44,018 nt of DNA from Escherichia phage vB_EcoP_B. The notes beneath the pieces are model-generated. The model saw only the letters and a list, made by a program, of their open reading frames with translations. It was not told the DNA's origin and ran no database searches. Positions 3,075-22,085 of the stretch are shown piece by piece (positions within the stretch are counted from its first letter, which is position 1; each line of letters starts with the position of its first letter). The stretch lies in the sequence record NC_047806.1; one strand, 5' to 3'. The translations under genes were made by a program, and so were the position numbers.

Positions 3075-3244
3075 TTCACCTCCTTCATCACACCTTTAAC
3101 TATTGCCTCTTTAAAGTATGCTAAGTCAGAACCATAGGCACTTAGGAACCACATTGCACCTTCATCATTGGAGGTCAATACAAAACCAAGAGGGCTTACT
3201 CTATATAAGTTACCGAAGTACCCTCTATATAGTTTACCTTCCAT
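3071..3244 (-). CDS. hypothetical protein (57 aa from ATG; track shows TTG-extended 63 aa)
   Basis: ORF track 3071..3262; first two starts lack SD, ATG at 3242-3244 has GAGGA SD. Confidence 0.4.
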   Translation of the reverse strand: MEGKLYRGYFGNLYRVSPLGFVLTSNDEGAMWFLSAYGSDLAYFKEAIVKGVMKEVK

Positions 3245-3245
3245 A

Positions 3246-3716
3246 TTAAATATCCTCATCAATACATTCGTGACGATGCTTCTGGAATAGCTCTTTGTAG
3301 TAGTCTGCTTTCTTCAGATCTTCTTCCGTGTTGAATTTCTTCCCTGCACGCAGACGATACTTCAAAGCATTACCCATGCAATATCCAGCAAATTGCTTCT
3401 CGGTCATACTACGAGCAATGATAGTGATTGCCTCTACCCCATCGAAGAACTCGTAGTGCTTAGGCTTAGTAACCATATTGTTGTCCAACGTGCTAGGATC
3501 TTCACCTTGCAATGAGTCAACAACCTTGAAGTAAGGTGCATACCATTCGCGCTTCTCAACACCTTCTAACATGATAGAGTTATAATTAGGTTCTGCACGG
3601 GATACTTTGAATACCCCATCTGGTTTCTTGTCTAGGCTTTCACACAGTTTATTCCAGATGGCATCTCGGTAAGCTGCACGGCGTACGACGTATTCGCCAA
3701 TATAAATCTTTGACAT
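3246..3716 (-). CDS. hypothetical protein (156 aa), possibly DUF3310-like
   Basis: ORF track 3246..3731 trimmed to ATG 3714-3716 with GGAGGA SD; KPKHY...GNALKYRLRAGKK pattern (family assignment from memory, weak). Confidence 0.5.
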   Translation of the reverse strand: MSKIYIGEYVVRRAAYRDAIWNKLCESLDKKPDGVFKVSRAEPNYNSIMLEGVEKREWYAPYFKVVDSLQGEDPSTLDNNMVTKPKHYEFFDGVEAITIIARSMTEKQFAGYCMGNALKYRLRAGKKFNTEEDLKKADYYKELFQKHRHECIDEDI

Positions 3717-3769
3717 AATTAATTCCTCCATTCACTATACAATCAAGGGCAAGCTAATACCTACCCTTT

Positions 3770-3790
3770 GTTCTATAGTGTCAACTAAAT
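3770..3790 (-). promoter_or_regulatory. phage RNAP promoter (SP6-type)
   Basis: minus-strand ATTTAGTTGACACTATAGAAC; upstream of 3246..3716. Confidence 0.65.
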
Positions 3791-4792
3791 CTTACCAATC
3801 CAGCGATTGTCATTATTGGTCTGCATCGGGACAATGTGCGGCACACCCTCCAGAATAACCACACAACCTAATGCTGGCTTGTATTTGGACTCACGACCAT
3901 AGGCAAATGCACGAGATGACTCATCAATCAAACAGCCTCCCTGCACAGCCCAATACTGTTCATGGGTGTTACGTGCATACTCCACCGACATCTTCCCATG
4001 CAAGTGACCACACACTAAGTTCATGCGCTCATGTGCTGCATCTGCTAGGACAGCGCCAGCAGGTTGATGCTTGAACGCCACCTGCTCACCATTAGGTAGC
4101 TCAAGTACATGCGTATGCTGCCAGTCCCACTGGTCGCCACCTCCCTGCGGGAAGAAGACTTCACGGTATGTGCGCAGGTATTGCACAGGGATGCCATGAG
4201 CACTGGCCTTACGGAAATGTAAGGAGCCATGATTAGAGTGGCAGATGCGCATTACAGGGAACATCTTATGTAATTTACGCATGAAGATACGAGCCTTCTC
4301 TAACTCCATACCAGCCGAATCCAGATTAGGATCTGACGTATGGAATGAAAGTGCGTGCTTGTCCGCCTCATCACCAAGATGAACTACAGTGTCTGGACGG
4401 TAACGTGCTGCCACCGCTGCCAGAAACTCTAATGTATCTGGATGCTCATAAGGTGCATGGGTGTCAGGTATTACCAGTACACTTCGATGAGGCGAGTCAG
4501 GCAATGGTACAATAGCCAAATCCTCGTAGCGGTCAGGAGTCCTGAGCTTACGTTCTTCTTTGATAGCACGGTTCGCAATAGCCAAGGTTTCATACGCCTC
4601 GCCATTCTTCTTCCGCTTTTCAAATTGTTTGGCCCAATACTTTGCAAGCTGCCTTGTAACTGTAGTCCCGTGTGTGTTATCTGAGAGAATAGACGCCATC
4701 AGGCGATAGTTGATAGTGCCATCATCCCGCTTTGCACTTTCAACTGCTTCTTCTACCTCCTTATTAGTAAACAAGTTTCTAATCTTACCCAT
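3785..4792 (-). CDS. calcineurin-like metallophosphoesterase (about 335 aa)
   Basis: ORF track 3785..4804 (TTG start) trimmed to first ATG; motifs IPDTH, HLGDEADKH, CHSNHG, CGHLHG in canonical order. Confidence 0.7.
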   Translation of the reverse strand: MGKIRNLFTNKEVEEAVESAKRDDGTINYRLMASILSDNTHGTTVTRQLAKYWAKQFEKRKKNGEAYETLAIANRAIKEERKLRTPDRYEDLAIVPLPDSPHRSVLVIPDTHAPYEHPDTLEFLAAVAARYRPDTVVHLGDEADKHALSFHTSDPNLDSAGMELEKARIFMRKLHKMFPVMRICHSNHGSLHFRKASAHGIPVQYLRTYREVFFPQGGGDQWDWQHTHVLELPNGEQVAFKHQPAGAVLADAAHERMNLVCGHLHGKMSVEYARNTHEQYWAVQGGCLIDESSRAFAYGRESKYKPALGCVVILEGVPHIVPMQTNNDNRWIGKI

Positions 4793-4846
4793 TATTCTTT
4801 CCAAACCCTCCCGCTTACAATATCACTAATGGTAGCAGGTGAGACA

Positions 4847-5221
4847 TTATAGCTTAGCTAGTCGTAACCTCTCACCTTTCTTATTAGCAACATATGTTGC
4901 CCTGATAGCACGTACAACATCCCAAGTTAGTTTAGCACGATTATTATTTTCTCCTGCAAAGCTAGCACGTCTGCCTCGATCTATCATATCTTGTATGTTG
5001 TCCTGCTGTGTACCAGATATTAAGTGTGCAGGGTTTATACACCTTGCATTATCACAAGTGTGTCTAATCACTACATCCTTTATATCCTCTATAGAAAGGC
5101 CGTGGTGCTCTGCATAGACCACGCGATGAAGTAATTGTAACCTCTTACTAGGTTTATGCCACGACCTGTAGTAACCTAATTGATTTAAGCATTTATAATG
5201 CCCGTGGTCTATACAGTCCAT
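4847..5221 (-). CDS. HNH endonuclease (124 aa), possible homing endonuclease
   Basis: ORF track 4847..5353 trimmed to ATG 5219-5221 with AAAGGAG SD one nt after upstream stop; HNH core HHGLSIEDIKDVVIRHTCDNARCINPAHL. Confidence 0.65.
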   Translation of the reverse strand: MDCIDHGHYKCLNQLGYYRSWHKPSKRLQLLHRVVYAEHHGLSIEDIKDVVIRHTCDNARCINPAHLISGTQQDNIQDMIDRGRRASFAGENNNRAKLTWDVVRAIRATYVANKKGERLRLAKL

Positions 5222-5222
5222 A

Positions 5223-5624
5223 TCATACTCCTTTCTTTCTTGCATAAGCAAGGCGTGCCTTACGGTTCTTAGCCTCGCGCTTCTCTGCCTCCGTTTGATG
5301 TTTGTGATATAACTTATCTGTCTGAGGCGTACTATGTAACTTCCAGTATTCATACAGTCGTTCTAACCATTGAAGCTGGAAGTAACGGTTATTACCTGCC
5401 TTGCCATAACCAGAGATAACACCCTTAATCTTCCCTTCCGCACCATTGCAGCCTCGGCATACAACAGCGCGGCAGAATCCTGTCTCATGGTCATGGTCAA
5501 GTACACGGTTTACAGGTGTGACAGCTTTGAGACTGCCGCCACACAGAGGGCATTTCCAGCCTTGCTTATCCAGCAATTCCTTCTTATAAGCTGCCACCTC
5601 CGATGCTTTTAATTTGCTAACCAT
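5223..5624 (-). CDS. endonuclease VII-like Holliday-junction resolvase (133 aa)
   Basis: ORF track; CPLCGG ... DHDHETGFCRAVVCRGCNGAEG resembles T4 endo VII zinc/HNH region. Confidence 0.65.
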   Translation of the reverse strand: MVSKLKASEVAAYKKELLDKQGWKCPLCGGSLKAVTPVNRVLDHDHETGFCRAVVCRGCNGAEGKIKGVISGYGKAGNNRYFQLQWLERLYEYWKLHSTPQTDKLYHKHQTEAEKREAKNRKARLAYARKKGV

Positions 5625-6637
5625 TCCGCATCATCTCCCCACAAGATTGGGTTCTTATCGGCTCGCCATATATCACCTTTGAATCTAGCCATGTGAGCTA
5701 GGCGACCACATTCAAGCATCAGGTCAAAGGCTTTGCCGATACGATAACCACCTCGGTAATTCTTAATCTTAACTTGTCCATGCCCGAACTTAGCCTTGTA
5801 AGCACCCAGCACTGCCATGTACAACTCTTTCTCTGTCTTACAATCTTTGAGAAGATCATAGGCATATTTAGCACCACGACCTGGTATGCCAGCATAGTTA
5901 TCAATATCATCACCGATAATCATCTGTGCATAGTGGAACATGAGGCCAGCACCTTTTAGATCTTTGACTTGCCCATTAGCCTTACGGCGTAGCTCAAGCC
6001 AGCCCATAGGCTCTACCCACTTCTTCTCTTGACCCGGCTGTAGATGCCAACCGGGAACAATCATCAAATCCTTATCCAAGGAAACGATGCAAGTATCAGA
6101 GAATGATTTATGCTCTGGACTACCGATAGGGAACTCGTTACCTGTATCTTGCTGGAAGCGGCGGTGGCTGTCCCATTGTGCGATACTCATGAGGTCGTCT
6201 GCTTCCTCTCCATCTGCCAAGATTGCACCGTGAACCTCTAAGAGATGCTCTCGCAATTCATAGAAGAATGGAGGCTTCTCGGTCTTACGTTGACCTTTAT
6301 AAGGCTTGGTGAATGCTAGGCGGACACGGAAGTTAGCTTCTGATTTCGTCATGAATAACTTAGCTGCATCACATTCTGCTGCATACACCCAAGAGTTAAG
6401 CAAGGAGTTCACACGGTCACACGCTTGCTTACACTCAGGCGTATCTTTGATTGATGGGACTTGTCCTGACTTAACACGAGTTGTGGCTCGTACATAAGTC
6501 ATGTCGCTGATTGTATACGCGACGATGTAAGGCAACATATCGGCATCTATTAAAGCGATTCGATTACCTTCAGTCGGCCACAGGATGAGATTATTGTCTT
6601 CCGATACTGTAGCTCCGAAGTCGAAGTTTGGTCGCAT
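5609..6637 (-). CDS. 5'-3' exonuclease (gp6-like), about 342 aa
   Basis: ORF track 5609..6646 (GTG start) trimmed to ATG with AAGGAG SD; LIDADMLPY and DKDL/GIPG blocks like T7 gene 6 exonuclease. Confidence 0.75.
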   Translation of the reverse strand: MRPNFDFGATVSEDNNLILWPTEGNRIALIDADMLPYIVAYTISDMTYVRATTRVKSGQVPSIKDTPECKQACDRVNSLLNSWVYAAECDAAKLFMTKSEANFRVRLAFTKPYKGQRKTEKPPFFYELREHLLEVHGAILADGEEADDLMSIAQWDSHRRFQQDTGNEFPIGSPEHKSFSDTCIVSLDKDLMIVPGWHLQPGQEKKWVEPMGWLELRRKANGQVKDLKGAGLMFHYAQMIIGDDIDNYAGIPGRGAKYAYDLLKDCKTEKELYMAVLGAYKAKFGHGQVKIKNYRGGYRIGKAFDLMLECGRLAHMARFKGDIWRADKNPILWGDDAEWLAN

Positions 6638-6822
6638 GTAGGCCACTCCTTCAAGAAGGAGGACACCGCATCATGGAGGTTCTGTCTTAACCAATAGTCA
6701 TCCCATTGTCTCACCTCCACTAGCTTCTCACCAGTTTTGTAATCATAGGCAACCCCAATATACTGTCTGGTGATTGCATTGTAGCTAATGTCCAGTTCAA
6801 TTCGAGATTCAATAGTCGGCAT
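6550..6822 (-). CDS. hypothetical protein (90 aa)
   Basis: ORF track; ATG 6820-6822 with GGAG SD; 3' end overlaps exonuclease start by about 90 nt. Confidence 0.35.
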   Translation of the reverse strand: MPTIESRIELDISYNAITRQYIGVAYDYKTGEKLVEVRQWDDYWLRQNLHDAVSSFLKEWPTCDQTSTSELQYRKTIISSCGRLKVIESL

Positions 6823-6939
6823 AATTCATTCTCCAATAACTATTACGCAAAAGACCCTGCCTACACTAAGGCAGACAGGGCATTAGATGAGGTGAGCGTG
6901 ATAGTCAACTAGGACTAACAGAGGCTACACCTGCTATTA

Positions 6940-7311
6940 TCAAAACTCTTCCTCTTCGCTAACCGGAGCTTCCGGTGCAGACACTTCTACTGCCGGAGCT
7001 TCAGCTTCTTCAGCAGCTTTGACTTCTTTCACTGGTTTACCAGCAGCAATCCAATCCAGATATTCAGCTACGATGTTAGCCTTACCGATCTGGGCTTTGT
7101 CAGCCTGCTCAGGGAAGCAAGCACGAGCGAACTCCAGACCAGCAGCGAAGTTACCCATGCTGTCAATCTTAGCCTGAGCTTCTTCACGGGTATCGTAAGC
7201 CTTAGTACCAGCTACCAGTTGATCAGCTTCATCGACGATAATGAAAGACTCAACGGATACCAGAGCAGCACCTTTAACAACACGGTTTACGATAGTTTCA
7301 ATCTTGAACAT
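6940..7311 (-). CDS. hypothetical protein with acidic C-terminal tail ending in Phe (123 aa)
   Basis: ORF track; AAGGAG SD; C-terminus ...PEAPVSEEEEF; directly downstream of phage promoter at 7364-7384. Confidence 0.55.
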   Translation of the reverse strand: MFKIETIVNRVVKGAALVSVESFIIVDEADQLVAGTKAYDTREEAQAKIDSMGNFAAGLEFARACFPEQADKAQIGKANIVAEYLDWIAAGKPVKEVKAAEEAEAPAVEVSAPEAPVSEEEEF

Positions 7312-7363
7312 ATTAAATTCTCCTTTTGTTGGTTATGGCATTATCGCCGATTAAAATTCTTCT

Positions 7364-7384
7364 CTTCTATAGTGTCCAGTAAAT
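7364..7384 (-). promoter_or_regulatory. phage RNAP promoter
   Basis: ATTTACTGGACACTATAGAAG. Confidence 0.7.
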
Positions 7385-7399
7385 ACCGGACACCGATTT

Positions 7400-7415
7400 G
7401 TCTCACACGTGAGAC
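7400..7415 (-). other. GTCTCAC..GTGAGAC palindromic hairpin element
   Basis: gtctcacacgtgagac; between gene end 7417 and promoter 7364-7384. Confidence 0.5.
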
Positions 7416-7416
7416 T

Positions 7417-7635
7417 TTATAAAACTGTGTTCACCTGAGCAATGTCATGCGCCGGAAGCGATACGCCGTGGCGTTTCCCCGTAGCTGGGTCGCTGTAGTT
7501 CACCACGTGCTGTCCGTCGCGCCAGATGTAGTGCAGGTCGGCATATGTGTCCCCTTCAGAGAAGGAGTGAAAAGTGTTGCCGCCAAGAGTTGTAATTCCT
7601 TTCTTGCAGTGCAGGGTTACGATTTGTACTTTCAT
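7417..7635 (-). CDS. hypothetical protein (72 aa)
   Basis: ORF track; ATG with TTAAGGAG SD. Confidence 0.5.
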   Translation of the reverse strand: MKVQIVTLHCKKGITTLGGNTFHSFSEGDTYADLHYIWRDGQHVVNYSDPATGKRHGVSLPAHDIAQVNTVL

Positions 7636-7644
7636 CCTTTCTCC

Positions 7645-8451
7645 TTAATATTCCGCGTCCTCATCCATCTCCGGTGCAGGAGTATCTTCTGCTTCAGGTA
7701 CTTCCTGTGGAACAGACTCACCAGTATCCAGAGATTTACGATTAGCTGGGGTAGCATCTTCCTCGTCTTTCTTCTTAGCCTTCTTCCATTCAGGGTCTTC
7801 TTCACGAGCAGCTTTGATAATAGCTTCTACGTGAGAGCCAGCAACAGACAGGTTCTTACCACGAGGTGTCTCGTTCAGGAAGTATTGACGTACCAAGTTA
7901 GCTGGGATGTCATCAAGGATTTCTTTGGTCAGCTTGTCGAAGGTGATATGACCTGTCATAGACAGACCTTCCTCTTCTACCTGAGCCAGTACAAGCTTCT
8001 TCAACTTATCAGGCATACCGCCAAAGCCTTTCCAGTTAACATACTTGAAAGTACCATCATCATTCTTGTCGCCAGAGCCAACCATAGTTGCAGTCAGACA
8101 TTCACCGATAAAATCATCGAAGCCACCCAGCAACTCTTTAGGGTCAACTGCATTCAGGAACTTAGTCAGTGTTGCCTTATCACCAGACTTCAGAGGCACA
8201 GCCATCCATTGTTCCATGCGAGAATCATCTTCATTCTTATCGTCGTCACCCATCAGGATAATCTTAACAAGAACAAAGTTTGCTGGCTTCTTAACTTCAG
8301 TGGTATTACCTTTCTTAAAGATATCTTGGAAGGAACCAACATGAATGATGCCAGAGATTACTGCTTCATGATCACCAACTTCAGGGTTCTTAAATACTTT
8401 ACCTTCAGCTTTAGTAACCTGAGCACCAAAATCAAAATCACCACGTGCCAT
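7645..8451 (-). CDS. single-stranded DNA-binding protein (gp2.5-like), 268 aa
   Basis: ORF track; long acidic C-terminal tail ending ...EMDEDAEY (acidic tail with terminal aromatic, as in T7 gp2.5); promoter at 8510-8530 upstream. Confidence 0.65.
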   Translation of the reverse strand: MARGDFDFGAQVTKAEGKVFKNPEVGDHEAVISGIIHVGSFQDIFKKGNTTEVKKPANFVLVKIILMGDDDKNEDDSRMEQWMAVPLKSGDKATLTKFLNAVDPKELLGGFDDFIGECLTATMVGSGDKNDDGTFKYVNWKGFGGMPDKLKKLVLAQVEEEGLSMTGHITFDKLTKEILDDIPANLVRQYFLNETPRGKNLSVAGSHVEAIIKAAREEDPEWKKAKKKDEEDATPANRKSLDTGESVPQEVPEAEDTPAPEMDEDAEY

Positions 8452-8509
8452 TTATTTAGTCTCCTATTGTTACACTACACAATCATAGGCAGAACTAAGC
8501 CGACCTATT

Positions 8510-8530
8510 GTTCTATAGTGTCCAGTAATT
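8510..8530 (-). promoter_or_regulatory. phage RNAP promoter (upstream of SSB)
   Basis: AATTACTGGACACTATAGAAC. Confidence 0.65.
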
Positions 8531-8828
8531 ACTTATGAACTACCTTAATACGTGCAATAGTATCGAGAGGGTAGACATAACTAACACATTCACCATCTTC
8601 AACCTCTTGTACATTTACACTAGCCATAGTGTCACAAAGTGAAAGGCTCAATTGATGACAAGTTTCACCTTGAGTAAACTCTGGACCACGATAGGCATCT
8701 GCTTGTTCCACAGTAGTGATTGCTGTATCGTCTTCTTTAGCCAGACGAGTGTGACCTGCAACTTTACGCTGCTCTAGATCACGAAAGATGATACCTACAT
8801 GTTTAGCTTGAATCACTTCTTCCATCAT
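8529..8828 (-). CDS. hypothetical protein (99 aa)
   Basis: ORF track; AAGGAG SD. Confidence 0.45.
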   Translation of the reverse strand: MMEEVIQAKHVGIIFRDLEQRKVAGHTRLAKEDDTAITTVEQADAYRGPEFTQGETCHQLSLSLCDTMASVNVQEVEDGECVSYVYPLDTIARIKVVHK

Positions 8829-8834
8829 AACTCC

Positions 8835-9212
8835 TTATTTAGTCAAGTTGTCCAGTTCTATTTCCAGCATAACAATCTCTTTCTTCAGGCTGTCAGATGC
8901 AGCTTGATTTACAAGAGCAATTGATGCCTTGTTCTCTTCAAATTCAGCTTTCAGGCTGTCACGCTCTTGCTGGTGACGTGCCAGCATATCTTCTACCTCT
9001 TTGACTTGACGTGCATTTAGTTCATCACGAGATGCATAGTAGCGGTTATGACAGTCAATCATTTGAGAACTACGATGTTCTTCAACTTTAACTTGCTCTG
9101 CCTGTACTGCTTCGATGCGAGCCTCAATAGCTTTGATAGCCTTGGACTTGAACTTATTAGCAAGACCACGAAAGTATTGAGCCACGAATACCAGAGTAGT
9201 TACCATAGACAT
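8835..9212 (-). CDS. hypothetical protein with N-terminal hydrophobic segment and coiled-coil-like remainder (125 aa)
   Basis: ORF track; ATAGGAG SD; promoter at 9278-9299 upstream. Confidence 0.5.
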   Translation of the reverse strand: MSMVTTLVFVAQYFRGLANKFKSKAIKAIEARIEAVQAEQVKVEEHRSSQMIDCHNRYYASRDELNARQVKEVEDMLARHQQERDSLKAEFEENKASIALVNQAASDSLKKEIVMLEIELDNLTK

Positions 9213-9277
9213 ATTTATATCTCCTATATTTATTTAATTACCTATACTACCTTATAAACCTAGATTACCTAGGCTTT

Positions 9278-9299
9278 CCTTCTATAGTGTCCAGTAAAT
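9278..9299 (-). promoter_or_regulatory. phage RNAP promoter
   Basis: ATTTACTGGACACTATAGAAGG. Confidence 0.7.
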
Positions 9300-9581
9300 C
9301 ATGTTAGACTAAATAAGTAGGAATAAGTTATTCATAAAGGCCACTCGTAAGTGACCTTGAGTATAACTCAGTCGTAGTTACCATCACAATCTGGGTCAAT
9401 GCCAGAGAAAGCCCAGAATACTACCATAAATAATATGACTCCAAGAATAATAAAAGATGCCTGCATCAATCGTAACCCTCCTCTTCATCAGGTATATCTA
9501 ATCGCATACTTCCATAGCAAGCAAGCATAAGGAATATAAGAAAGAAGGTGGAGAATAGGCAAACAATATCAAACCTGTCCA

Positions 9582-12128
9582 TCAGTGTGTTTCCTTCCAA
9601 CTTGCACCAATCTTATACTCACCTGCCATCGGACAACGCATCTTCAGGTACTGACCTGCCCAAGTCATTGCATCGGCAATGATATGCCCTGCACGGTGAT
9701 AACGACGCTGGCAATGAAGTACACCAGCATCAGCATCAACACTAACGAGATTTGCAGCAGACCACATACGTCCTTCAGAATCCACATGAACACGTTTCTC
9801 CTCTGCATCGAACACTGCTTTCACAGCAGCCTTCTCTGTTTCGAACCCTTCTAAGGTGAAAGGCAAGTCGTAGTTGAGATACAAGACCTCATCTTCAGGG
9901 ACTTCCATCTGGATTTCATCGTGCACGTTAGCTATACCGCAAGGGTTTCCCATGCTATCTAAGGCCACACCTTCCTTGCGCATCACTGCAAACGCTCTGA
10001 CCAATGCGTATTTCATACACAGAGAACCAGTCATCTGGAGTAGTACGTTAAGCATAGTGTGCTCTTTAAGTTCACCACCAGACATACGGATGCGACCCCA
10101 ATGACCATCAGGTGCTTGTAGGTAGCCAAACTTGTTACCTTGTGCGATAACATTCTCACGAAGACGTGCAAGAGATGGTAGTTCAACCTCAAATCTTGCC
10201 ACAACTTCCTCCATTTCTTCCTCAGTAACACCACATACTGCTGCAAGGTTAGCTATACCAGACCCATATAGGAAGGCATATATAAATGTCTTCGCCATGT
10301 CACGCTTAGGAAGACCAGCCTTCATTTGATTATGGGTGTGAATGTCACCATGCAGTACAATATCTTGATATTCAGGGTCATTCATGAAGTGAGACAGTAC
10401 ACGTAGTTCAAGACCAGCACCATCACAACCAAGGATTAGCTTACCTTTACCGGCTATGAATAAATCACGTAAAGGATACAAACCACGGGCAGGAATATTA
10501 ACCACGTTACGATGACGCATACGGAACGTAGAAGTTCCAATACTAATAGCAATAGCTGGCACACGCCATTCTCCGTCATCCTTGTCTGACGTAGGCCAGC
10601 ATCCGTACCTTTCGTAGTATTGCTGCGCATTGATTCCTAACTCCTTGTTAAATGCTACAGGTACAAGGCCGCGACACTTTCGTATACCAGCTTGCGAAGG
10701 CCACACCCCCTTCTGGTCGAAGGCTTCAACGTCACCACGGTTGAGGATCTGACCACGACGGGATACGAGTATGTACCATGCAGCGATACCCAAGCACCAA
10801 TCAGGGACTGTTTTACCTTCACGTGCGGCTCTCTCTTGCCATAAAGTAAGGGACTTTTCATTTATCTTCCCACTCCAAGGCTTGGGTAATACGCCATGCT
10901 CATCGAGATGCGCTTGCTCGGTATCGTTAAATTCAACACCTTTCCATCCATAATCATAGAGCACTTGCTTAACTGTATCCCTGTTACCCAAGGGAATCTC
11001 TTCGAAAGTAACAGGCGAGTAAGCGCCAATCCACTTGATGCTTGGCGTGTCATTACGGTTTCCTCTAAGGTGAGGAAAGTCTTTCTTGACGCTAGCCGAC
11101 CAATCACCAGACTTAGTAGTGACACTCCATACTGTCTTGCGATCTCCTCGTCTCTCTGCGTGAAGAAAGTGAGAGGGGTCAAGGACAGTAGGTATATTGT
11201 TGCTAGCTCCATACTCATTTGCGCGTTGGCATACTTCATTCTTTTCTTCCGGTTTAAAAGGTTTAGACTTGATACGCATAGGCATGTGCGGACGGAACGC
11301 TGCGACTGTCTCATCAATCTTAGCGTCCAATTCCTCGCATCGTGCTAATGCTTTATCTATATCCAGACGGAATCCACGCTCGGCCTGACGGCTCATCTCC
11401 AGCGCCACAATGGACTCCATGTGGAAGGCTGTCTCAATACCTAGGCCAGTGCGTTTATTCACGCCACGGCGTTTGTGCTCCGTCCATTCTCCGTTAAATA
11501 GCCAGAGGAATAGGTCACGGCCTATCGCCACGTCCTCGCGTACACGATGTACCATGTGGTCAGTTAGTTTAGACCAATCCTCGTTCTCCGGCTTATAACG
11601 GCCTATACGAATGCCGTGCGCCTCAATTGAGTGAGGGGCTACGTTACCCATGCCTTTGGCGTATGCTTGCGGAGGGAGGCGTCTATCGGGGTTTAACAGG
11701 CGACTCATGACCAGCGTATCCATGACGCGTACCGGACACAGGTCAGCGCGGAGTCTGCCCTTGCCGCGTCTCTCGGTATAGTTAAAGCCTTTCCAGATAT
11801 CAGGGAATGCTTTCTCAAATAGAAGGCCGTCGTACCCTAGGAAGTTCTGTGAGACGATGGCTTCGCAGTGCTTAAGGAAGTTAACACCGTCAACCAATGT
11901 TCCATCTTGATGGCCTTCCCATTCTTTTAGGCGTTCTCTTGCTTCAGGGTCACGCATCTCGTATGGGTCAAAGAAGAGGAACTCCTCTGTAGTAAGCAAA
12001 TCCATGCAGCAAATGATGTGCACATCTTCGCGGTGGCCATATCGGATAGCATCCAGCAGGCCTTTAGCCTCAGAATCCATCACTAAGATGCGGCCTTCTG
12101 CTTCCTTCTTCCAATCAATTGATTTCAT
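9582..12128 (-). CDS. DNA polymerase (family A, T7 gp5-like), 848 aa
   Basis: ORF track 9582..12161 trimmed to ATG 12126-12128 with GGAG SD; motifs GCDGAGLELRVLSHF, KTFIYAFLYGSG, VHDEIQMEV match T7 DNA polymerase motifs A/B/C. Confidence 0.85.
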   Translation of the reverse strand: MKSIDWKKEAEGRILVMDSEAKGLLDAIRYGHREDVHIICCMDLLTTEEFLFFDPYEMRDPEARERLKEWEGHQDGTLVDGVNFLKHCEAIVSQNFLGYDGLLFEKAFPDIWKGFNYTERRGKGRLRADLCPVRVMDTLVMSRLLNPDRRLPPQAYAKGMGNVAPHSIEAHGIRIGRYKPENEDWSKLTDHMVHRVREDVAIGRDLFLWLFNGEWTEHKRRGVNKRTGLGIETAFHMESIVALEMSRQAERGFRLDIDKALARCEELDAKIDETVAAFRPHMPMRIKSKPFKPEEKNEVCQRANEYGASNNIPTVLDPSHFLHAERRGDRKTVWSVTTKSGDWSASVKKDFPHLRGNRNDTPSIKWIGAYSPVTFEEIPLGNRDTVKQVLYDYGWKGVEFNDTEQAHLDEHGVLPKPWSGKINEKSLTLWQERAAREGKTVPDWCLGIAAWYILVSRRGQILNRGDVEAFDQKGVWPSQAGIRKCRGLVPVAFNKELGINAQQYYERYGCWPTSDKDDGEWRVPAIAISIGTSTFRMRHRNVVNIPARGLYPLRDLFIAGKGKLILGCDGAGLELRVLSHFMNDPEYQDIVLHGDIHTHNQMKAGLPKRDMAKTFIYAFLYGSGIANLAAVCGVTEEEMEEVVARFEVELPSLARLRENVIAQGNKFGYLQAPDGHWGRIRMSGGELKEHTMLNVLLQMTGSLCMKYALVRAFAVMRKEGVALDSMGNPCGIANVHDEIQMEVPEDEVLYLNYDLPFTLEGFETEKAAVKAVFDAEEKRVHVDSEGRMWSAANLVSVDADAGVLHCQRRYHRAGHIIADAMTWAGQYLKMRCPMAGEYKIGASWKETH

Positions 12129-12334
12129 AGATTGCTCCAAAGTATTTAACCCTATAACCAAGTCCTAATAAAGAATTAGGTGTTAGATGAGGATAGTTAT
12201 ATGCTAATTCATTGTGGTACTTATCAAACAAAGCAGCCTCTTTCTTAGACCTGCAATGCCCACACTTACCATCAATACGACTGCGATAACCTTTACCGCA
12301 AGAGCAAACCTTACTGACTTTAATAGCTTTCATA
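12115..12334 (-). CDS. small zinc-ribbon-like protein (about 72 aa)
   Basis: ORF track 12115..12360; better SD before internal ATG 12332-12334; CSCGKGY...CGHC cysteine pairs. Confidence 0.4.
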
Positions 12335-12456
12335 CATTGCCTCTGTTTCGTAGTAGTCATCTGAACGTTCAGGTTTTGAGTTCATTGAATCTTGGAAATC
12401 CCAATCAGAATCATAATCACGTGGCATAATGCACCTCCAATCAATATGATGAAAGG

Positions 12457-12474
12457 CTGTCTCACGTGTGAGAC
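12457..12474 (-). other. GTCTCAC..GTGAGAC palindromic hairpin element
   Basis: tgtctcacgtgtgagaca; intergenic. Confidence 0.5.
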
Positions 12475-12504
12475 AACCCTTTACTTATCGACTGCGTGTT
12501 ACAG

Positions 12505-12693
12505 TTAATTTCTGGCCCATGTATTTGCCTTGGTGTGGCTCCAAGTTGCCTCTTTGATAACTTGCTCGCGCGTCAGGCTATTCTTCTTTGCTTCAGCCAT
12601 AGTTAACTGTGCAAACAGGAAGGCTTGGTTAGTAATTTGTGCTTGCAGGTCTTCGTGACCATCAAACATCTTAAGACTGTGTTTATTTTGCAT
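12505..12693 (-). CDS. hypothetical protein (62 aa)
   Basis: ORF track; ATG start, weak SD. Confidence 0.35.
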   Translation of the reverse strand: MQNKHSLKMFDGHEDLQAQITNQAFLFAQLTMAEAKKNSLTREQVIKEATWSHTKANTWARN

Positions 12694-12901
12694 GTTTCAC
12701 CATAAAGCTGCCGATTACATTAAACTCCTCACGGAACTCTTTTTCAGTCCAATGACCGAAAAGTTCCATCTGAAAACTTGCACTAAGACTGGCACCTATT
12801 AATGCAAACCCCTTTGAAGTACCATATGTCTTGACACCATCTGGTGCTACAACTGCATAGCATTTATGAGGTCCACGCATATAAATTAATACCTTAGTCA
12901 T
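12683..12901 (-). CDS. hypothetical protein (72 aa)
   Basis: ORF track; strong SD CTAAGGAG. Confidence 0.5.
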   Translation of the reverse strand: MTKVLIYMRGPHKCYAVVAPDGVKTYGTSKGFALIGASLSASFQMELFGHWTEKEFREEFNVIGSFMVKHAK

Positions 12902-12911
12902 GATTAACTCC

Positions 12912-13595
12912 TTAGATATTCACGTAGGTTTCTTCAGTAACGATAGGTAGGTACAGTAATTCTTCACCATTTAAGATGTGAAGACCCTTCAACCCTTGCT
13001 TACGAATAATACCTTCTATAGTGTCGGCGAAATGATTATTAGCTACACGCCGTGGTGTGCCATGCTCTGTGATTGCATGGTCAACATCCAAGATTCGCAC
13101 AGGCACATTTGGGTGCATCATAGCTTCACCAATTTTCACCATAGCTTGCCCTGTGGATTTACCCAATGCACGAGTATTGAACTGTGTAACACCTAATGCA
13201 GTGCCACATTGCTTAATCATTTCACTTTGAGTCTTACCAGTGATTACATTGCGACGCTCTTTCTTGAGTGTGGTTTTCTTTTCTGCCATGTACTCTGCTA
13301 GTGTTTGAGGACCAGCACCATAATAAAGAGGAGCTAGGAAATTCTTAAGCATCTGGCGAGCACATTTATCGCAAACCTCATCATGTATGCACTTACATTG
13401 ATTGTTTATCTCTACAATCTTTTCAAGATATTTATGTGCTGTTTTCTTGTGGTAAGAAGCCTTAATACCATCCTCATATTCTACATGATACATGTTCTCA
13501 CTTATACGATCCACTACACCACGGCAACGATAACGACGTGAGGCTTCATTGATGTTACGAACATAATCACCTGCATTCAATACTAATTTATACAT
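12912..13595 (-). CDS. hypothetical protein (227 aa) with Cys cluster
   Basis: ORF track 12912..13670 trimmed to ATG 13593-13595 with GGAG SD (the track's N-terminal extension covers an intergenic hairpin); CKCIHDEVCDKC cluster. Confidence 0.5.
   Translation of the reverse strand: MYKLVLNAGDYVRNINEASRRYRCRGVVDRISENMYHVEYEDGIKASYHKKTAHKYLEKIVEINNQCKCIHDEVCDKCARQMLKNFLAPLYYGAGPQTLAEYMAEKKTTLKKERRNVITGKTQSEMIKQCGTALGVTQFNTRALGKSTGQAMVKIGEAMMHPNVPVRILDVDHAITEHGTPRRVANNHFADTIEGIIRKQGLKGLHILNGEELLYLPIVTEETYVNI
13013..13033 (-). promoter_or_regulatory. phage RNAP promoter-like sequence inside coding region (divergent -17..-8)
   Basis: ATTTCGCCGACACTATAGAAG. Confidence 0.4.
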
Positions 13596-13635
13596 AATCA
13601 ATCTCCAGTTATTTAATATATACTTAATAAGAGCC

Positions 13636-13653
13636 TGTCTCACATATGAGACA
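13636..13653 (-). other. GTCTCAC..GTGAGAC palindromic hairpin element
   Basis: tgtctcacatatgagaca; between helicase stop and next gene. Confidence 0.5.
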
Positions 13654-13673
13654 AGCCCCGATAAATACACTAA

Positions 13674-15662
13674 TCAGAACTCACTTTCTTCATCGAAGTT
13701 AGTCTCTTCTATAGTGTCTGGTAAATCAGGTACTTCTTGTTGCCTTGCTTCACCTGTATCAAATGACTTAGTACGAGCTTGTGGTTCCATTAAACGTCCG
13801 GTTTGAATGTCACCCTTGAGCATGACCTTGGTTCCAGTGTAGATACCTTGGTCGCGGTCTTTGACACATGAGATGTACGTGGTAGTCCTTTCATCAAGCG
13901 TTTCAGCTCTTGTATTACGCTCAATCCCCAAGGCGTAAGATGCCCAGAATCCGATAGCGCCTGAGCCTCGGAAGTCAGAAAGGATAACTTCGCCACCTTC
14001 TTCGTGTTGGGTACGGTTTGCCGGAGGACGTGTAAGGTGAGAGACAAGGAAAATCGTAACCGCATGTCGATCTTTGATAGTACCAATTCGTTTGACGCAT
14101 TCATCAAGTGCACCAACCTTCCCACCAAAAGCACGCTCATCTAATTTAATCCCCGTTAAGTTATCAATGATGATATTAGAAATGCCCATAGCCTCAAACT
14201 CTAGGCAAGTTTGCTCTACCTTCTCCATAGAATAGTCACCCTCTAGGTCAGCTACAAACAGCTTCCCTGTATCAGCTACATAATCAATGGCGGCATTAGC
14301 CTCTTCCTCAGTATAGTCGAACACCTCACGGTATCCGTCTTCTTTCGGGTCATTGGTTGGCGGTAACTCAATGCGCTTATCAATCCACTTACCGATAAAA
14401 GCACGGGACACCTTGACCATCGGGTCTTCTGTAGAAATGATGCCTACAGATTCACCATGTTCTTCAATAAGATGTTTAACCACTTCGCGGAGGAACTCAG
14501 TCTTACCTACACCAGAGCCTGCACCTACAATGATAAGCTGGTTCTTACGAATACCTAGCGTTACCTTGTTCAGCTTAGGCCAAGGCCATGATAGCCCTTG
14601 CTCTGGACGTGCAGCCTTGAGCTTATCCCTTTGAGATGCGATAGATTTAATATGGCTACCAAAGACTTCATCAGATGACTTGGCATTAAACCAAGCATCA
14701 ACAAACTCTTTAGCCTTGCCAGCCATCAATGCCTTGTTAGCATCTTTGCAACCAGAAGGGTATTCAAGGATATAGGATTTGCCAGGAAACAGGCGAGCCG
14801 CTTGCTGATTCTGCTTCTGCCCTACCTCATCTCCATCAAAACCCCATATAATCTTCTTAAATTGGGCGATGTGTTCACGGTTCTGTACTATCTCTTCAAG
14901 GCAAGACTCACCTTTATTGACAGACCATACATGGTAAGGCTGGCCTTCCCACTTAGTACCCTTGGCAGAATCAAGGAGCATTTGCTGTGCTGCTAGTGCA
15001 TCCAGTTCGCCGCCGACAATGAGCAAGTGATCCTTTCGTCTTCCCTTGTCTAACACGTGAGACAAAGTATTCATCCCGAAAAGATCTTGCATACCAAAGA
15101 GTTTACCTAAATGACCAAACTTAAAGTCTTTAGGTAATGTGCGACACTTAGCGCCTACTAGTTCACCTTTCTCGAAGCGTGGATAGTAATGCCGTGAGAC
15201 TCTACCCTCTTCATCGTGTCCGACACGTACATCATACAATGCGCAAATGTCGCCGCGAATGTGTCGGGAAACAAGATTCTTACGCTTAAGCGTGAGGAAC
15301 CATTCAACATCAAGTTTCCACTCTGCTTCTTGGTCTGCCCTTTCTTGCTCATTCATGACCTCCCATCGGTCTTTCATACGCATGCCACCAAGTGCGATGG
15401 CGCGTAACTTAGGGTCGCTTATCTTCCCTTCCTTCTCCATCTCTTTGAATTGAGAAGGTGTATATTTGATATTGCCAGTAATAGGCAACTCGGTGATCTC
15501 GATGCCACCATCTGGCTTATGATAGTAAGGCTTGCCGTTATCGTGGAAATGACCACGGTTACAATAGCCAGCACCATCATCAAATATCATGAGATGATTG
15601 CCGGATTTATCGTGTCCATTCTTCTGGCAGGCAGGGCACGGGATGTTATTAATAATAGCCAT
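13674..15662 (-). CDS. bifunctional DNA primase/helicase (gp4-like), 662 aa
   Basis: ORF track; N-terminal zinc ribbon CPACQ...CNRGH, Walker A GAGSGVGKT, acidic C-terminus ending ...FDEESEF; AAGGTG SD. Confidence 0.85.
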   Translation of the reverse strand: MAIINNIPCPACQKNGHDKSGNHLMIFDDGAGYCNRGHFHDNGKPYYHKPDGGIEITELPITGNIKYTPSQFKEMEKEGKISDPKLRAIALGGMRMKDRWEVMNEQERADQEAEWKLDVEWFLTLKRKNLVSRHIRGDICALYDVRVGHDEEGRVSRHYYPRFEKGELVGAKCRTLPKDFKFGHLGKLFGMQDLFGMNTLSHVLDKGRRKDHLLIVGGELDALAAQQMLLDSAKGTKWEGQPYHVWSVNKGESCLEEIVQNREHIAQFKKIIWGFDGDEVGQKQNQQAARLFPGKSYILEYPSGCKDANKALMAGKAKEFVDAWFNAKSSDEVFGSHIKSIASQRDKLKAARPEQGLSWPWPKLNKVTLGIRKNQLIIVGAGSGVGKTEFLREVVKHLIEEHGESVGIISTEDPMVKVSRAFIGKWIDKRIELPPTNDPKEDGYREVFDYTEEEANAAIDYVADTGKLFVADLEGDYSMEKVEQTCLEFEAMGISNIIIDNLTGIKLDERAFGGKVGALDECVKRIGTIKDRHAVTIFLVSHLTRPPANRTQHEEGGEVILSDFRGSGAIGFWASYALGIERNTRAETLDERTTTYISCVKDRDQGIYTGTKVMLKGDIQTGRLMEPQARTKSFDTGEARQQEVPDLPDTIEETNFDEESEF
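13706..13726 (-). promoter_or_regulatory. phage RNAP promoter inside 3' end of helicase gene
   Basis: ATTTACCAGACACTATAGAAG. Confidence 0.6.
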
Positions 15663-15880
15663 TAGTTCACCTTAATAGTTCTGGGTTGGTAAGAGTCAGC
15701 TTTTCTACGCTTAGAGATAAACTTCTTTGCATCCCTTTCGGTGCAGAAGATAGCCTCTGTATCAGTATAGCCAATAGGCATCATACACGTGACCCATATT
15801 AAGCCTAATACTTTACGTTGCACTATGTAGCACTCTTGCCCGTGACTATTTAAACAGGTCTTGATTCTGTATTTAGCCAT
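15662..15880 (-). CDS. hypothetical protein (72 aa)
   Basis: ORF track; ATG 15878-15880; stop overlaps helicase start (TAATG). Confidence 0.45.
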   Translation of the reverse strand: MAKYRIKTCLNSHGQECYIVQRKVLGLIWVTCMMPIGYTDTEAIFCTERDAKKFISKRRKADSYQPRTIKVN

Positions 15881-15883
15881 AAC

Positions 15884-16012
15884 TTAGAACCCCCACGCAG
15901 CGCGTTTAGATGCACGGTCACGGACAGGTTTATTCAGCTTCTTGCCTTTCTTCTGCCCTTCTTCCATGTCAAAACGGTTAGCTTTACGGGTCATCTTCTC
16001 AAAGTTACGCAT
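15884..16012 (-). CDS. gp1.1-like small basic protein (42 aa); not in ORF track (<60 aa)
   Basis: ATG 16010-16012 with GGAG SD just downstream of promoter 16038-16060; translation MRNFEKMTRKANRFDMEEGQKKGKKLNKPVRDRASKRAAWGF resembles T7 gp1.1 (MRNFEKMT..., from memory). Confidence 0.5.
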   Translation of the reverse strand: MRNFEKMTRKANRFDMEEGQKKGKKLNKPVRDRASKRAAWGF

Positions 16013-16037
16013 GGTTAAATCTCCAAAGTGAGTTAAT

Positions 16038-16060
16038 CTTATCTATACTGTCCGGTAAAT
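16038..16060 (-). promoter_or_regulatory. phage RNAP promoter variant (upstream of gp1.1-like ORF)
   Basis: ATTTACCGGACAGTATAGATAAG (C-to-G change in core). Confidence 0.5.
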
Positions 16061-16065
16061 ACGAA

Positions 16066-16081
16066 GTCTCACATGTGAGAC
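16066..16081 (-). other. GTCTCAC..GTGAGAC palindromic hairpin element
   Basis: perfect 16-bp palindrome gtctcacatgtgagac, 5 nt upstream of promoter 16038-16060. Confidence 0.55.
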
Positions 16082-16084
16082 AAC

Positions 16085-16223
16085 CTAGGTCTGCCCTTCC
16101 TCTAAGTGGTAATAAGAGGAAGGAAGAAGGTAATAGGTATTCCTAGATAACCTATATAACCTTTAATACCTATTACTTCCTTTATATCCTTTATCTTCCC
16201 TTTCTTTCCCGTCTCCGACGGCT
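16085..16223. other. AT-rich repeat-containing spacer between tandem phage promoters; candidate primary replication origin
   Basis: non-coding, AT-rich, repeated AGGAAG/TATTACC/AGGTTAT motifs; flanked by promoters 16224-16244 and 16038-16060 (T7 origin sits in the analogous place). Confidence 0.35.
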
Positions 16224-16244
16224 ATCCTATAGTGTCCGGTAAAT
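16224..16244 (-). promoter_or_regulatory. phage RNAP promoter (first after RNAP gene)
   Basis: ATTTACCGGACACTATAGGAT. Confidence 0.6.
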
Positions 16245-16247
16245 AAA

Positions 16248-16263
16248 GTCTCACATGTGAGAC
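16248..16263 (-). other. GTCTCAC..GTGAGAC palindromic hairpin element
   Basis: perfect 16-bp palindrome, 3 nt upstream of promoter 16224-16244. Confidence 0.55.
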
Positions 16264-16298
16264 ACGTTTTATGTTAATGAAATGTTACAGGTAGTAGG

Positions 16299-16327
16299 TA
16301 AAAGAAAGCCACTCCCGAAGGAATGGC
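16299..16327 (-). terminator. intrinsic terminator after RNAP gene (early terminator candidate)
   Basis: RNA GCCAUUCC-UUCG-GGAGUGGC (8-bp stem, UUCG loop) followed by CUUUCUUUU. Confidence 0.55.
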
Positions 16328-16336
16328 CTATTAATA

Positions 16337-18964
16337 TTATGCGAAACAATAGTCTGAAACTAAGATTTCGTTAAGGTCAAACTCCCCTTGCTCTGGTACT
16401 TGGATTCCGGTGTCTACTAACCAACGCTCTTCGTGCACATCTAGCAGGTTTTGCAGGGCATTATGGTTTTGATACATCTTAACCATTTCTTCCCTTAAGC
16501 TATCCCGCAGGTCTGCGGTACGTCCTGCATGAGTACCGAAAGAATCATGGATGACTGCAATGGATGTAATACCTTTATCCACTAGGTCACATACAGTCAG
16601 AATCAGGTGGCTAGCATCGTGACCATGGACGAAGTTAGGAGCAGCCGCACCCATCATTGCCGTTTCATCAACTACATCTGTTTCAATCTGGAGACTCATC
16701 TTGATTTCACCCATCAAGCAAGTGGATACGCGGAGCATATCTGTAGCCATTATCTTTTGTTGCAAGATGAAGCCAGTTGGTAAGGGATATTCTAAGCCTT
16801 CGTTTCTTTTAGCTGCGAAACGTGCAAGCTGACGAATCATTTTCATTGCCACTATAGGAGCTTTAACCACTTCCGAGATAGAAGGCCAGATTAAAGCTGT
16901 CATATAGTTATAAGCTGCGCTAGGTGTCAGGCTGTCTTTACGGTCATTATCAAAAGGGTGTACAGGATTGGCGGTACGCCCTTCCGCAATAGCCCGTTGG
17001 GCCTCTTTTTCTTCTAAATCAACGATATAATCAATCACTGACTCACGGCAGGTTAGACGTGTGCTGCCATAAGGTAGTGTCATTACGGGCTTTTTGGTCA
17101 GGCCGCGAGTGATTCCTATCATATCCCACGCACTAGCCATACTACGCAGTTCCGCACCTGTTAAAGTCACGCTGCCAGAAGTGAAGGTTTCCGCATCCTC
17201 TGCATTCATGTATGCATAATTCTTCTGAATTACTACCTGCGCAACGGCACCATAAATATCTTGAGGAGAGTCAGAGGGCTTAAGGTTTACTGCTTTCGCA
17301 CCTACTGCATCGCGTAGCATAGCACTGTAGTGCTGGATACCAGAACAACTACCATCTTGATGGACTGGGAGGTGCGTCATGAATTGGTCTTGCGTGCCTT
17401 CATCCAGTGCATCCAGATAACGCGCATATTCAAAGCACCATGCAAGGAAGCCGTAAGGGGAGTCGGCATTTACCCATTGAGTGAAGGTCAGCGGATCCGC
17501 TGCAATGTCGCGGCACATGTCTTGAAATTCACCATCCAGCACGTTAGCGGTGCGCACGTCAAAAGTTTTCTTATCCCAACCCCAGTTATTAGCCCCGTTC
17601 ACCAAAAACCACTTAAGCGCCTCAGCGCTATCAAGACGCTGCCCTTCGGTAAAACGGAGCAATGCCTTGCCTAAGTCGTTTGATTGCGGAGAGAGCGTGC
17701 TAGATTGCGCGTAGACGCGGCTGCGGCTGTCCAGAGCATACACGAAGTATATTGCGTCAAATTGGCTGTATTTACGGGCCTGCCCTACCATGCGGACGGT
17801 CGCCGCCGATTTGCTGCCGCGCTTAGTCTCAGCGGTATACAGCTTGGTGCATTCACCTTTCCAGTTGATGAAGGCTTGCCATTGTTCCGGTGTTAACATT
17901 TCTTTCAGTTCACGTCCTCGCAGGTGCTGGAACTCTAACGGCACCGGATTAGCTGGCTTGTTCTCACGGTCGATGAGTGGTTTAAAGGAAGGTACACCAT
18001 AGCCGAGGTCTAGACGTATAACGTCCTCCACAACCTGTAAAACCTCTTTATTAACCTGCCACTTAGTTGCCTGCAAAGCGTTAACAGCCTTATAAACGGC
18101 TGGCATTTGCTTTTTGGTCAGCTTGCGGACGTGCTCACGATTGCCTTTTACCAGACGAATACGGCTTGCTACTTTCTCAGTATGAAACCCACCGTTAAAA
18201 GGTGATACCCAAGGGCGGGGAGGTATAACGCAAGGTGCATAGGCAGGGCTGAGCTGCGCTACATGTTCCTTAAATGCAGTTATCCACTCTCCAACATGTT
18301 CACTGGTCTGTAAATAGTAAACACCATGCTTTCCGCCGTTAGTGCGCAAGGTACGAAGGAAGACAGGTTGACCATTGAAGAATACACTATTCTCCAATAT
18401 TTCGAGCAAGGTCATACCGATTTGCAGCAAGGTGTCTTTAGGCCATGCCTCCCAACGGGAGAAATCCGCGTCACGGTCAGCAACAGATTTCTCAGCTACT
18501 ACCGCTACGTTGTGCGCATGACGATAAGATTTAGTCTTGCTAGCCTTAAGCGACTTCTTCACTTTCTCAAAGTACTTAGCTGCGTGACCTTCCAGCTTGC
18601 TAAAACGTACTTGGTCTTCGATGCGGTCCGCTACATTCATAGCGATGGCTTGTAAGGTAACGTCTGTATTCAGCATGTCCATAACGATTTTCATGGTGAT
18701 ATATGCTGCTACTTCGTTTTCTACGCAGTTAATGAAAGCTAATGCACGCGGTGCGCGGCCTCTTTTACCTTCGTACTCTTCCTTATAAGCCTGAATACCT
18801 TCCGCCATAGGTGCGATTAGTTCGGACAATAAGCGGCGATTCCATGCCGTGTCTGATTCATTACCGGATGCAATCTGGCGTTGTTGGTCCGCTTCAAAGC
18901 GACGGATACCGCCGTTAAACATTTCTTCTTCAAGTTGAAGTTGAATAGCGTGTAGGTCTTGCAT
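16337..18964 (-). CDS. single-subunit DNA-directed RNA polymerase (T7/SP6-like), 875 aa
   Basis: ORF track; [18 protein letters not shown] and C-terminal ...DYCFA match T7 RNAP catalytic and foot motifs; length close to SP6-group RNAP; AGGAG SD. Confidence 0.9.
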
Positions 18965-19027
18965 CTTGTTTACTCCTAGTGAAAGAAACCTTAATAGGTG
19001 ACACCTAAGAAGATGCCACCGATAAGG

Positions 19028-20269: not shown

Positions 20270-20290
20270 CTCTTATAGTGTCAGCTAAAT
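20270..20290 (-). promoter_or_regulatory. phage RNAP promoter-like sequence in early region
   Basis: ATTTAGCTGACACTATAAGAG (SP6-like TGACAC, TATAAG instead of TATAGAAG). Confidence 0.4.
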
Positions 20291-21915: not shown

Positions 21916-22085
21916 TTGTCTAACGTGTGAGACTAAGGAAAAAAAAAAAAAAAAAAAAGCAATAGATACAGAGCTAGGATAGGCTAGATTGGCTAGGTAT
22001 TCCAAACGTGAAGGGGAGAAAAAGGAAAAAAAAAAAAAAAAAAAAGCAATAGATACAGAGCTAGGATAGGCTAGATTGGCTAGGT
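21916..22085. repeat. tandem direct repeat (two about 87-bp units) each containing an A20 tract; probable genome-terminus / terminal-repeat junction
   Basis: 62-bp exact repeat GG-A20-GCAATAGATACAGAGCTAGGATAGGCTAGATTGGCTAGGT at 21937-21998 and 22024-22085; lies between last late gene and first early gene. Confidence 0.7.

Follow-up and report, generated by a model that had tools for sequence, protein, structure and literature searches.

The closest described relatives of the locus analysed here are the phages K1E, K1-5 and SP6, and a more distant one is T7. In the annotation of Escherichia phage K1E (Vectrevirus, Molineuxvirinae, SP6 group), gene 8 (CAJ29408.1) has the RNA polymerase gene 7 on one side and gene 8.5 with the primase/helicase gene 9 on the other. 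The same ORF is annotated as gene 8 in K1-5 (YP_654106.1) and in SP6 (AAR90001.1), and the RefSeq entry SP6p09 (NP_853569.2) carries the note "other names: gp1.1". For the SP6-like phage UAB_Phi78, the 41-aa ORF12 has been given as similar to T7 gene 1.1 (2016, PMC4837284). Gene 8 and its relationship to T7 gene 1.1 are, hence, already known and annotated. In T7 the order is gene 1, phi1.1A, phi1.1B, gene 1.1, followed by gp1.2 and ligase. The T7 early terminator TE is located downstream of gene 1.3, and therefore genes 1.1-1.3 are read by both polymerases, that of the host and that of the phage (PMC5592923).

The window, by which we mean the whole stretch of 44,018 nucleotides from Escherichia phage vB_EcoP_B (NC_047806.1), carries a gene of this kind. 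A sequence-only reading of this DNA had assigned a 42-aa gp1.1-like gene to positions 15884-16012. We observed that the interval is exact, but that the ORF is on the minus strand (Table 1); the translation of the plus strand is an unrelated peptide, and the plus-strand reading was dropped. The homology to gp1.1 also held. A 1-kb stretch around the gene is 98% identical in DNA to K1E, and the phage is of the K1E/SP6 type (Molineuxvirinae) and not of the T7 type (Studiervirinae). We concluded with high confidence that this ORF is gene 8 of a K1E-like phage, an ortholog of T7 gene 1.1 and a genuine protein-coding gene. As gene 8 belongs to a known family and is already annotated, the observation, though correct, is an ordinary one.

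Table 1. Features at and around gene 8 in the window (coordinates in the direction of transcription)
Feature	Coordinates	Strand	Remarks
Single-subunit RNA polymerase gene, 875 aa	18964..16337	minus	5' neighbour of gene 8; 32% identical to T7 RNAP
Intrinsic-terminator-like hairpin and T-run	16329..16306	minus	GC-rich 10-bp stem, then TCTTTTACCT; directly 3' of the RNAP stop
Phage promoter A, ATTTACCGGACACTATAG	16244..16227	minus	exact match to the consensus
Long hairpin, inverted repeat with 18-nt arms	16182..16124	minus	arms 89% complementary; between promoters A and B
Phage promoter B, ATTTACCGGACAGTATAG	16060..16043	minus	one mismatch to the window consensus
Shine-Dalgarno of gene 8, GGAG	16024..16021	minus	8 nt 5' of the ATG
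Gene 8, 42 aa, MRNFEKMTRKANRFDMEEGQKKGKKLNKPVRDRASKRAAWGF	16012..15884	minus	ATG...TAA
Downstream Shine-Dalgarno, in gene 8 codons 40-41	15895..15890	minus	TGGGGG here, TGGGAG in nearly all relatives
Gene 8.5, 72 aa	15880..15662	minus	K1E gp8.5; phrog_24605, E 9e-41
Primase/helicase gene	15662..13674	minus	25% identical to T7 gp4A

The protein scored 58.7 bits (E 7.6e-16) on the Pfam family PF08200 (Phage_1_1, Bacteriophage 1.1 protein), whose cutoff is 21, with residues 1-40 aligned on profile positions 1-39 of 40, and it matched phrog_2490 with an E-value of 3.3e-17. In a tblastn search it hit T7 6007-6129, the annotated gene 1.1, at 53.7% identity over 41 aa; blastp against T7 gp1.1 gave 55% over 38 aa (pairwise E 1.8e-12), and the reciprocal search from T7 gp1.1 returned K1E-like phages. 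BLAST comparison with T7-group genomes thus bore out the gp1.1 similarity that the sequence-only reading had proposed, and the likeness of the start is accurate: the first eight residues, MRNFEKMT, are identical in proteins sharing 54-55% overall. The T7 protein (NP_041961.1) also shares the length of 42 aa and the K-(L/R)-N-K, RDR, KR and W motifs.

We then compared the protein with its family. The columns M1, K6, K25, K28, R31, K36 and R37 are invariant in an alignment of 20 sequences from both subfamilies, and all of these except M1, that is six of the seven, are Lys or Arg. Nearly invariant are R2, N3, E5, T8, G23, N27 and W40. The window protein has every one of these residues, carries the N-terminal M-R-N-F-E-K and the C-terminal K-x-N-K-x-x-R-x-R-x-x-K-R-x-(x)-W motifs, and has the size (about 40-46 aa) and the strongly basic character of the family.

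Short basic sequences are known to yield spurious low-complexity matches, and the tblastn E-value to T7 was only 6e-4 in the full phage database; the likeness to gp1.1 might therefore be a coincidence of a short Lys/Arg-rich sequence in a chance ORF. We consider this reading refuted and its probability negligible. Against it stand the Pfam score, the agreement with T7 gene 1.1 in the N-terminal octapeptide, in length and in genomic position, and the selection signature described below (pN/pS 0.10). It is also contradicted by an HMM search of 1.84 billion representative proteins, which retrieved 13 clusters, all of proteins of 38-62 aa with the same motifs; no longer or cellular relatives of gene 8 were found among these representatives.

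An ORF of 42 aa is by itself unremarkable, as 125 ORFs of 20 aa or longer fall within or across the stretch 11000-19000, and therefore the case for the gene is made by homology, selection and context together. We measured selection among 11 distinct K1E-like alleles. The summed pairwise pN/pS was 0.097 in the gene's own frame, while the shifted frames gave 1.67 and 1.88, and the variable columns were distributed 1/4/12 over the three codon positions, so that third positions accounted for 12 of the 17 (chi-square p 0.003). The gene 8 protein is under purifying selection. Within the codons of the identical MRNFEKMT octapeptide, synonymous differences from the window are seen in T7 and in two further loci, L009 and L013, and therefore the constraint acts on the protein and not on a DNA or RNA element; a nucleotide-level element as the cause of the octapeptide identity was ruled out on the same observation.

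As the ORF lister begins at the first ATG, GTG or TTG after a stop, there is no in-frame start further 5' of the gene 8 ATG. The hexamer TGGAGA around the gene 8 Shine-Dalgarno is kept in 12 of 12 SP6-like sequences of the leader alignment, and the GGAG itself is present in every SP6-like locus examined. The earlier suspicion that short conserved genes are hidden by a 60-aa cutoff is justified by this real and conserved 42-aa gene, and the general point about missed short genes extends to public databases, where several records have either no feature or a mislabelled one over the gene 8 ORF.

Among the closest relatives, K1E gp8 is identical to the window protein at 41 of 42 residues and the K1-5 gene 8 protein at 95%. 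Both phages have the gene in the same place relative to the RNAP gene and behind the same promoters. Downstream, K1E has gene 8.5 and the primase/helicase gene, as does the window, whereas K1-5 is without gene 8.5. The SP6 gene 8 protein is 72-73% identical; its gene has the same position, immediately ahead of the primase/helicase gene, and shares the two-promoter leader and the terminator, and SP6, unlike the window, lacks gene 8.5. The RefSeq model of the SP6 gene (NC_004831 6271-6468) is 65 aa long, with a start placed 69 nt further 5' that would fall into the promoter B region. This start precedes the conserved Shine-Dalgarno and ATG, and the conserved start is that of the 42-aa protein. 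At residue 41 the window has Gly (GGG) where K1E and most relatives have Glu (GAG), a difference that turns the downstream Shine-Dalgarno from GGGAG in the relatives into GGGGG.

Next, we analysed the region between the RNAP gene and gene 8. The place that the sequence-only reading had called equivalent to that of T7 gene 1.1 is indeed so: gene 8 comes as the first ORF behind the RNAP gene, with two phage promoters ahead of it. The support of that reading for the map orientation was likewise sound, since the genes run on the minus strand. The reference to the first phage promoters needs a qualification. Two promoters do precede gene 8, but a weaker promoter-like site, ATTTAGCTGACACTATAA, is found farther upstream at 20290..20273 (minus), about 1.3 kb ahead of the RNAP gene; it has 3 mismatches and an A at the expected +1, and may be a weak phage promoter. 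Matches to the promoter consensus in the window numbered 12, all on the minus strand, against 0.01 expected, and promoters A and B are both conserved in the 12-sequence SP6-like leader alignment. Promoter B would yield a leader of about 31 nt before gene 8.

The hairpin and T-run behind the RNAP gene are probably the end of early transcription by the host RNAP. Across SP6-like lineages, 4 of the 9 stem pairs keep their pairing through two-sided changes, as expected for a real terminator. No sigma-70-like promoter was found in 15600-16500, and this, together with the terminator upstream, suggests that, barring read-through, gene 8 may be transcribed by the phage RNAP only. As the terminator precedes gene 8, the latter is probably a purely middle gene. 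In T7, on the contrary, gene 1.1 is located upstream of TE, and therefore the timing of the two genes would not be identical. Unlike in T7, no counterpart of gp1.2 was found here.

The segment between the two promoters contains a small hairpin, CCGTCGGAGACGG, a purine-rich stretch and the long hairpin. The last is present in both the MFE and the centroid folds, and the consensus fold of the SP6-like leader alignment did not keep it across lineages. By analogy, it is possibly an RNA-processing site: the T7 RNase III site R1.1 sits between the two promoters of that phage, in a place matching this hairpin. An Rfam search of 15500-16600 gave only two sub-threshold matches to miRNA families, located on the hairpin, which we attribute to chance. 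Over 16336-16013 (minus) the layout of terminator, promoter A, small hairpin, purine-rich stretch, long hairpin, palindrome and promoter B is conserved in SP6-like phages, and the layout from RNAP to gene 8 parallels the phi1.1A / R1.1 / phi1.1B region of T7, which is the T7 primary origin. We also considered the inter-promoter region as a T7-like AT-rich origin. Its GC content of 0.39 against 0.45 (13th percentile) makes it only mildly AT-rich, and origin function there is therefore speculative.

At the other end of gene 8, the next ATG follows the stop after 3 nt (TAAGTTATG), and all SP6-like loci share one and the same junction, TAAGTTATGG. In the relatives TGGGAG stands a few bases 5' of the TAA with a variable last codon between, giving TGGGAG...TAAGTTATG, while the window reads TGGGGGTTCTAAGTTATG; the 3' end of T7 gene 1.1 before gene 1.2, TGGGAGGGTCAGTAAGATG, has the same arrangement. 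What comes after the junction varies. It is gene 8.5 in the window and in K1E, and the primase/helicase gene directly in most loci, K1-5 and SP6 among them. The loci L005, L010 and L011 have unrelated small genes (MEIWMPV... or MELWRSI...) between gene 8 and the primase/helicase gene, and the slot is empty in most other loci of the L002-L016 set. From these comparisons the slot, at 15662-15883 in the window, looks like a hot spot of gene swapping at a fixed ribosome-binding junction. Because the junction is identical whatever gene comes next, translation of gene 8 is likely to be coupled to that of the downstream gene, and the conservation of the C-terminal Trp-Glu may be due in part to its double use as a Shine-Dalgarno.

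The gene 8 protein has a mass of 5.0 kDa, a pI of 11.1 and a net charge of +9, with 14 Lys plus Arg against 5 Asp plus Glu, and a GRAVY of -1.6; T7 gp1.1, of 42 aa, has a pI of 11.57 and a net charge of +10. With a pI of 11 and this hydrophilicity, the product is not a membrane peptide. AlphaFold2, run with an 18-sequence alignment, gave a weak model (pLDDT 63.5, pTM 0.23) with short helices at 4-17 and 33-41. Therefore, we drew no structure-based inference from it; such a model would fit a peptide that folds on its partner. A sequence profile search of the PDB at E-values up to 10 found no related solved structure, and NCBIfam and PADLOC gave no match to gene 8.

Lambda N is an arginine-rich-motif RNA-binding peptide (ARM ...RRRERRAEKQAQW). 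Gene 8 resembles it only in being a short, basic, helix-prone peptide with a Trp near the basic stretch (...RDRASKRAAW), and Pfam, HMM and PDB profile searches detected no significant similarity to arginine-rich-motif peptides.

A word-indexed protein search with gene 8 returned only 20 close relatives of SP6 type, and a GTDB scan with SP6-type patterns, covering 185,579 genomes of bacteria and archaea, found no relative. By tblastn over 50,697 phage records, 297 carry the gene 8 family, T7 included. Nearly all of these are phages of Enterobacterales, with a few of Aeromonas and Stenotrophomonas; the family belongs to virulent phages, chiefly of Enterobacterales. In some GenBank records gene 8/1.1 is labelled 'dGTPase inhibitor', which is the neighbouring gp1.2, or 'RNA polymerase', and in many T7 and Proteus phage records gene 1.1 is unannotated ('none').

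We ran tblastn against T7 (3100-39937) for all 154 minus-strand ORFs of the window that are 30 aa or longer, and gene 8, at 53.7%, had the highest identity of all. The gp1.7-like nucleotide kinase followed with 49%, and then the large terminase (35%), the DNA polymerase (34%), the RNA polymerase (32%) and the primase/helicase (25.5%). With 22 of 41 residues identical against a background of about 33%, the binomial p is 0.005, and it is unlikely that the excess identity of gene 8 is sampling noise. A peptide of 42 residues that is more conserved across two subfamilies than the polymerases, primase and terminase is of wider interest. The high identity across subfamilies could also be due to horizontal transfer, with co-infecting phages exchanging a tiny gene. 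The second-best conserved ORF, at 3731-3246 (minus), encodes 161 aa, of which 112 aa match T7 8412-8747 (gene 1.7) at 49% identity. Unlike in T7, this kinase gene is far from the gene 1.1 homolog.

In the literature that we reached on gp1.1, gene 1.1 and PF08200 there was no functional study, the product being described as a small protein of unknown function. In the old T7 nomenclature, '1.1' most likely denoted the 1.1 mRNA, from which gp1.2 is made as well. An early shut-off result is therefore not assignable to the gene 1.1 peptide: host protein synthesis ceased when Ocr was expressed together with '1.1' (McAllister and Barrett 1977, as related in a 2020 paper, PMC7064336).

Gene 8 is probably expressed through the phage RNA polymerase, as the earliest of the middle (class II) products. 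As to its action, we tentatively propose that the peptide binds a polyanionic host component and aids host take-over, a reading drawn from sequence that we hold at clearly less than even chance. Its invariant Lys and Arg residues, with the conserved aromatics F4 and W40, would bind a conserved polyanionic component of the host, namely RNA, the ribosome or DNA, and this binding would help to take over the enterobacterial cell early in middle expression. A host-directed function is suggested by the basic residues that never vary, by the hydrophilic character and by the confinement of the family to phages of closely related hosts. As gene 8 is far better conserved than the phage replication and transcription proteins, a polyanionic host target would be the most likely, and service to the phage's own, much more divergent replication proteins is less likely. 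The more specific proposal, in which gp1.1/gp8 would owe its unmatched conservation between T7-like and SP6-like phages to its attachment to an invariant machine of enterobacteria (for example the ribosome or some other complex that contains RNA) and would act as a general take-over factor, is rather doubtful; if true, the role of T7 gene 1.1, long unassigned, could be tested with either phage.

The peptide could alternatively be a replication accessory that binds origin DNA or an acidic C-terminal tail, either on the primase/helicase or on some other replication protein, and that is made in step with the replication proteins through translational coupling. The surroundings of the gene argue for such a role: gene 8 sits among DNA-metabolism genes, and in most SP6-like phages the primase/helicase gene begins 3 nt after it, with its Shine-Dalgarno inside gene 8. 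The primase/helicase of the window ends in an acidic tail (...TNFDEESEF). In T7, gene 1.1 is followed by gp1.2, the dGTPase inhibitor, and by ligase; the region is the primary replication origin in T7-like phages, the record of Yersinia phage R has 'ori; primary origin of replication' over its gp1.1 match, and the two-promoter architecture is conserved. The PhageMaP study (PMC11482910) also puts T7 genes 1.1-1.8 into high-essentiality clades, although polar effects are possible. We nevertheless consider the replication role unlikely, though it is the main rival of host binding. The peptide is about 54% identical between T7 and the window, whereas the candidate phage partners are at 25-34%, and a partner-specific interface would be expected to diverge alongside its partner. 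The coupling partner is moreover not constant, being gene 8.5 here, small genes in L005, L010 and L011 and gp1.2 in T7. Being only mildly AT-rich, the inter-promoter region is at best a putative origin, and Saito and Richardson in 1981 reportedly found T7 1.1 mutants to be viable and without a replication phenotype.

That gene 8 is a counter-defence or host-range factor, acting against an enterobacterial immunity or exclusion system and dispensable on laboratory strains, appears improbable. The idea draws on the confinement of the family to phages of narrow host range, on the lack of any recorded gene 1.1 phenotype in the literature reached, and on the small early and middle proteins of T7, which are often such factors (Ocr, gp4.5 and gp1.2 in PMC11482910). 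However, genes of this sort are usually variable and patchy, whereas gene 8 ranks with the most conserved genes and keeps its synteny in two subfamilies. Searches gave no PADLOC-related or other informative match, and the passages of PMC11482910 considered here name other T7 genes, not 1.1, as counters or triggers. More remote still is the reading of gene 8 as only a leader ORF that hands its ribosomes on to the start of the following gene or coincides with a DNA or RNA element, its peptide being functionless. The 3-nt spacing of stop and next ATG, the downstream Shine-Dalgarno inside gene 8 and the conservation of the junction whichever gene follows are what such an ORF would show, but the amino acids are conserved over the whole length (pN/pS 0.10) and the motif pattern spans two subfamilies despite synonymous nucleotide differences. 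A mere leader would not retain MRNFEKMT and K..NK..R.R..KR..W, and this reading is disfavoured as very improbable. Among these accounts, the binding of a polyanionic host component is the one that we put forward.

A 16-bp palindrome, GTCTCACATGTGAGAC, is present in the window in 8 copies with up to 3 mismatches, against 0.2 expected (7400-7415, 12459-12474, 13637-13652, 15048-15063, 16066-16081, 16248-16263, 21918-21933 and 34496-34511). Seven of the eight are outside long ORFs or at their very edge, and three are 3-15 nt upstream of a phage promoter. In several copies the flanks extend the stem by G-U pairs only on the minus-strand RNA, and a T-rich tail follows. Judged from these features, the palindrome may be an RNA hairpin for 3'-end formation, stability or pausing, or a binding site for a protein dimer. 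It is conserved in K1E-like loci and absent from T7 3100-17000, and at promoter B the SP6-type lineage has the symmetrically changed GTCCAACATGTTGGAC. We also considered binding of the gene 8 peptide to this hairpin as its conserved function, and rejected it, the motif being absent from the gene-bearing T7 and SP6-type loci; a hairpin missing from that T7 stretch cannot be the conserved target of the family.

In the early region, one palindrome copy is directly preceded by a run of 20 consecutive T at 21958-21939 (minus; A on the plus strand), which would be prone to slippage or sequencing error. Relative to K1E, the window is apparently a circularly permuted whole genome, in which the K1E left end corresponds to about position 23067 as judged from the RNAP-gene offset. 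The ORF 43597-44004 matches the T7 portal gene, and late genes flank the ends of the window.
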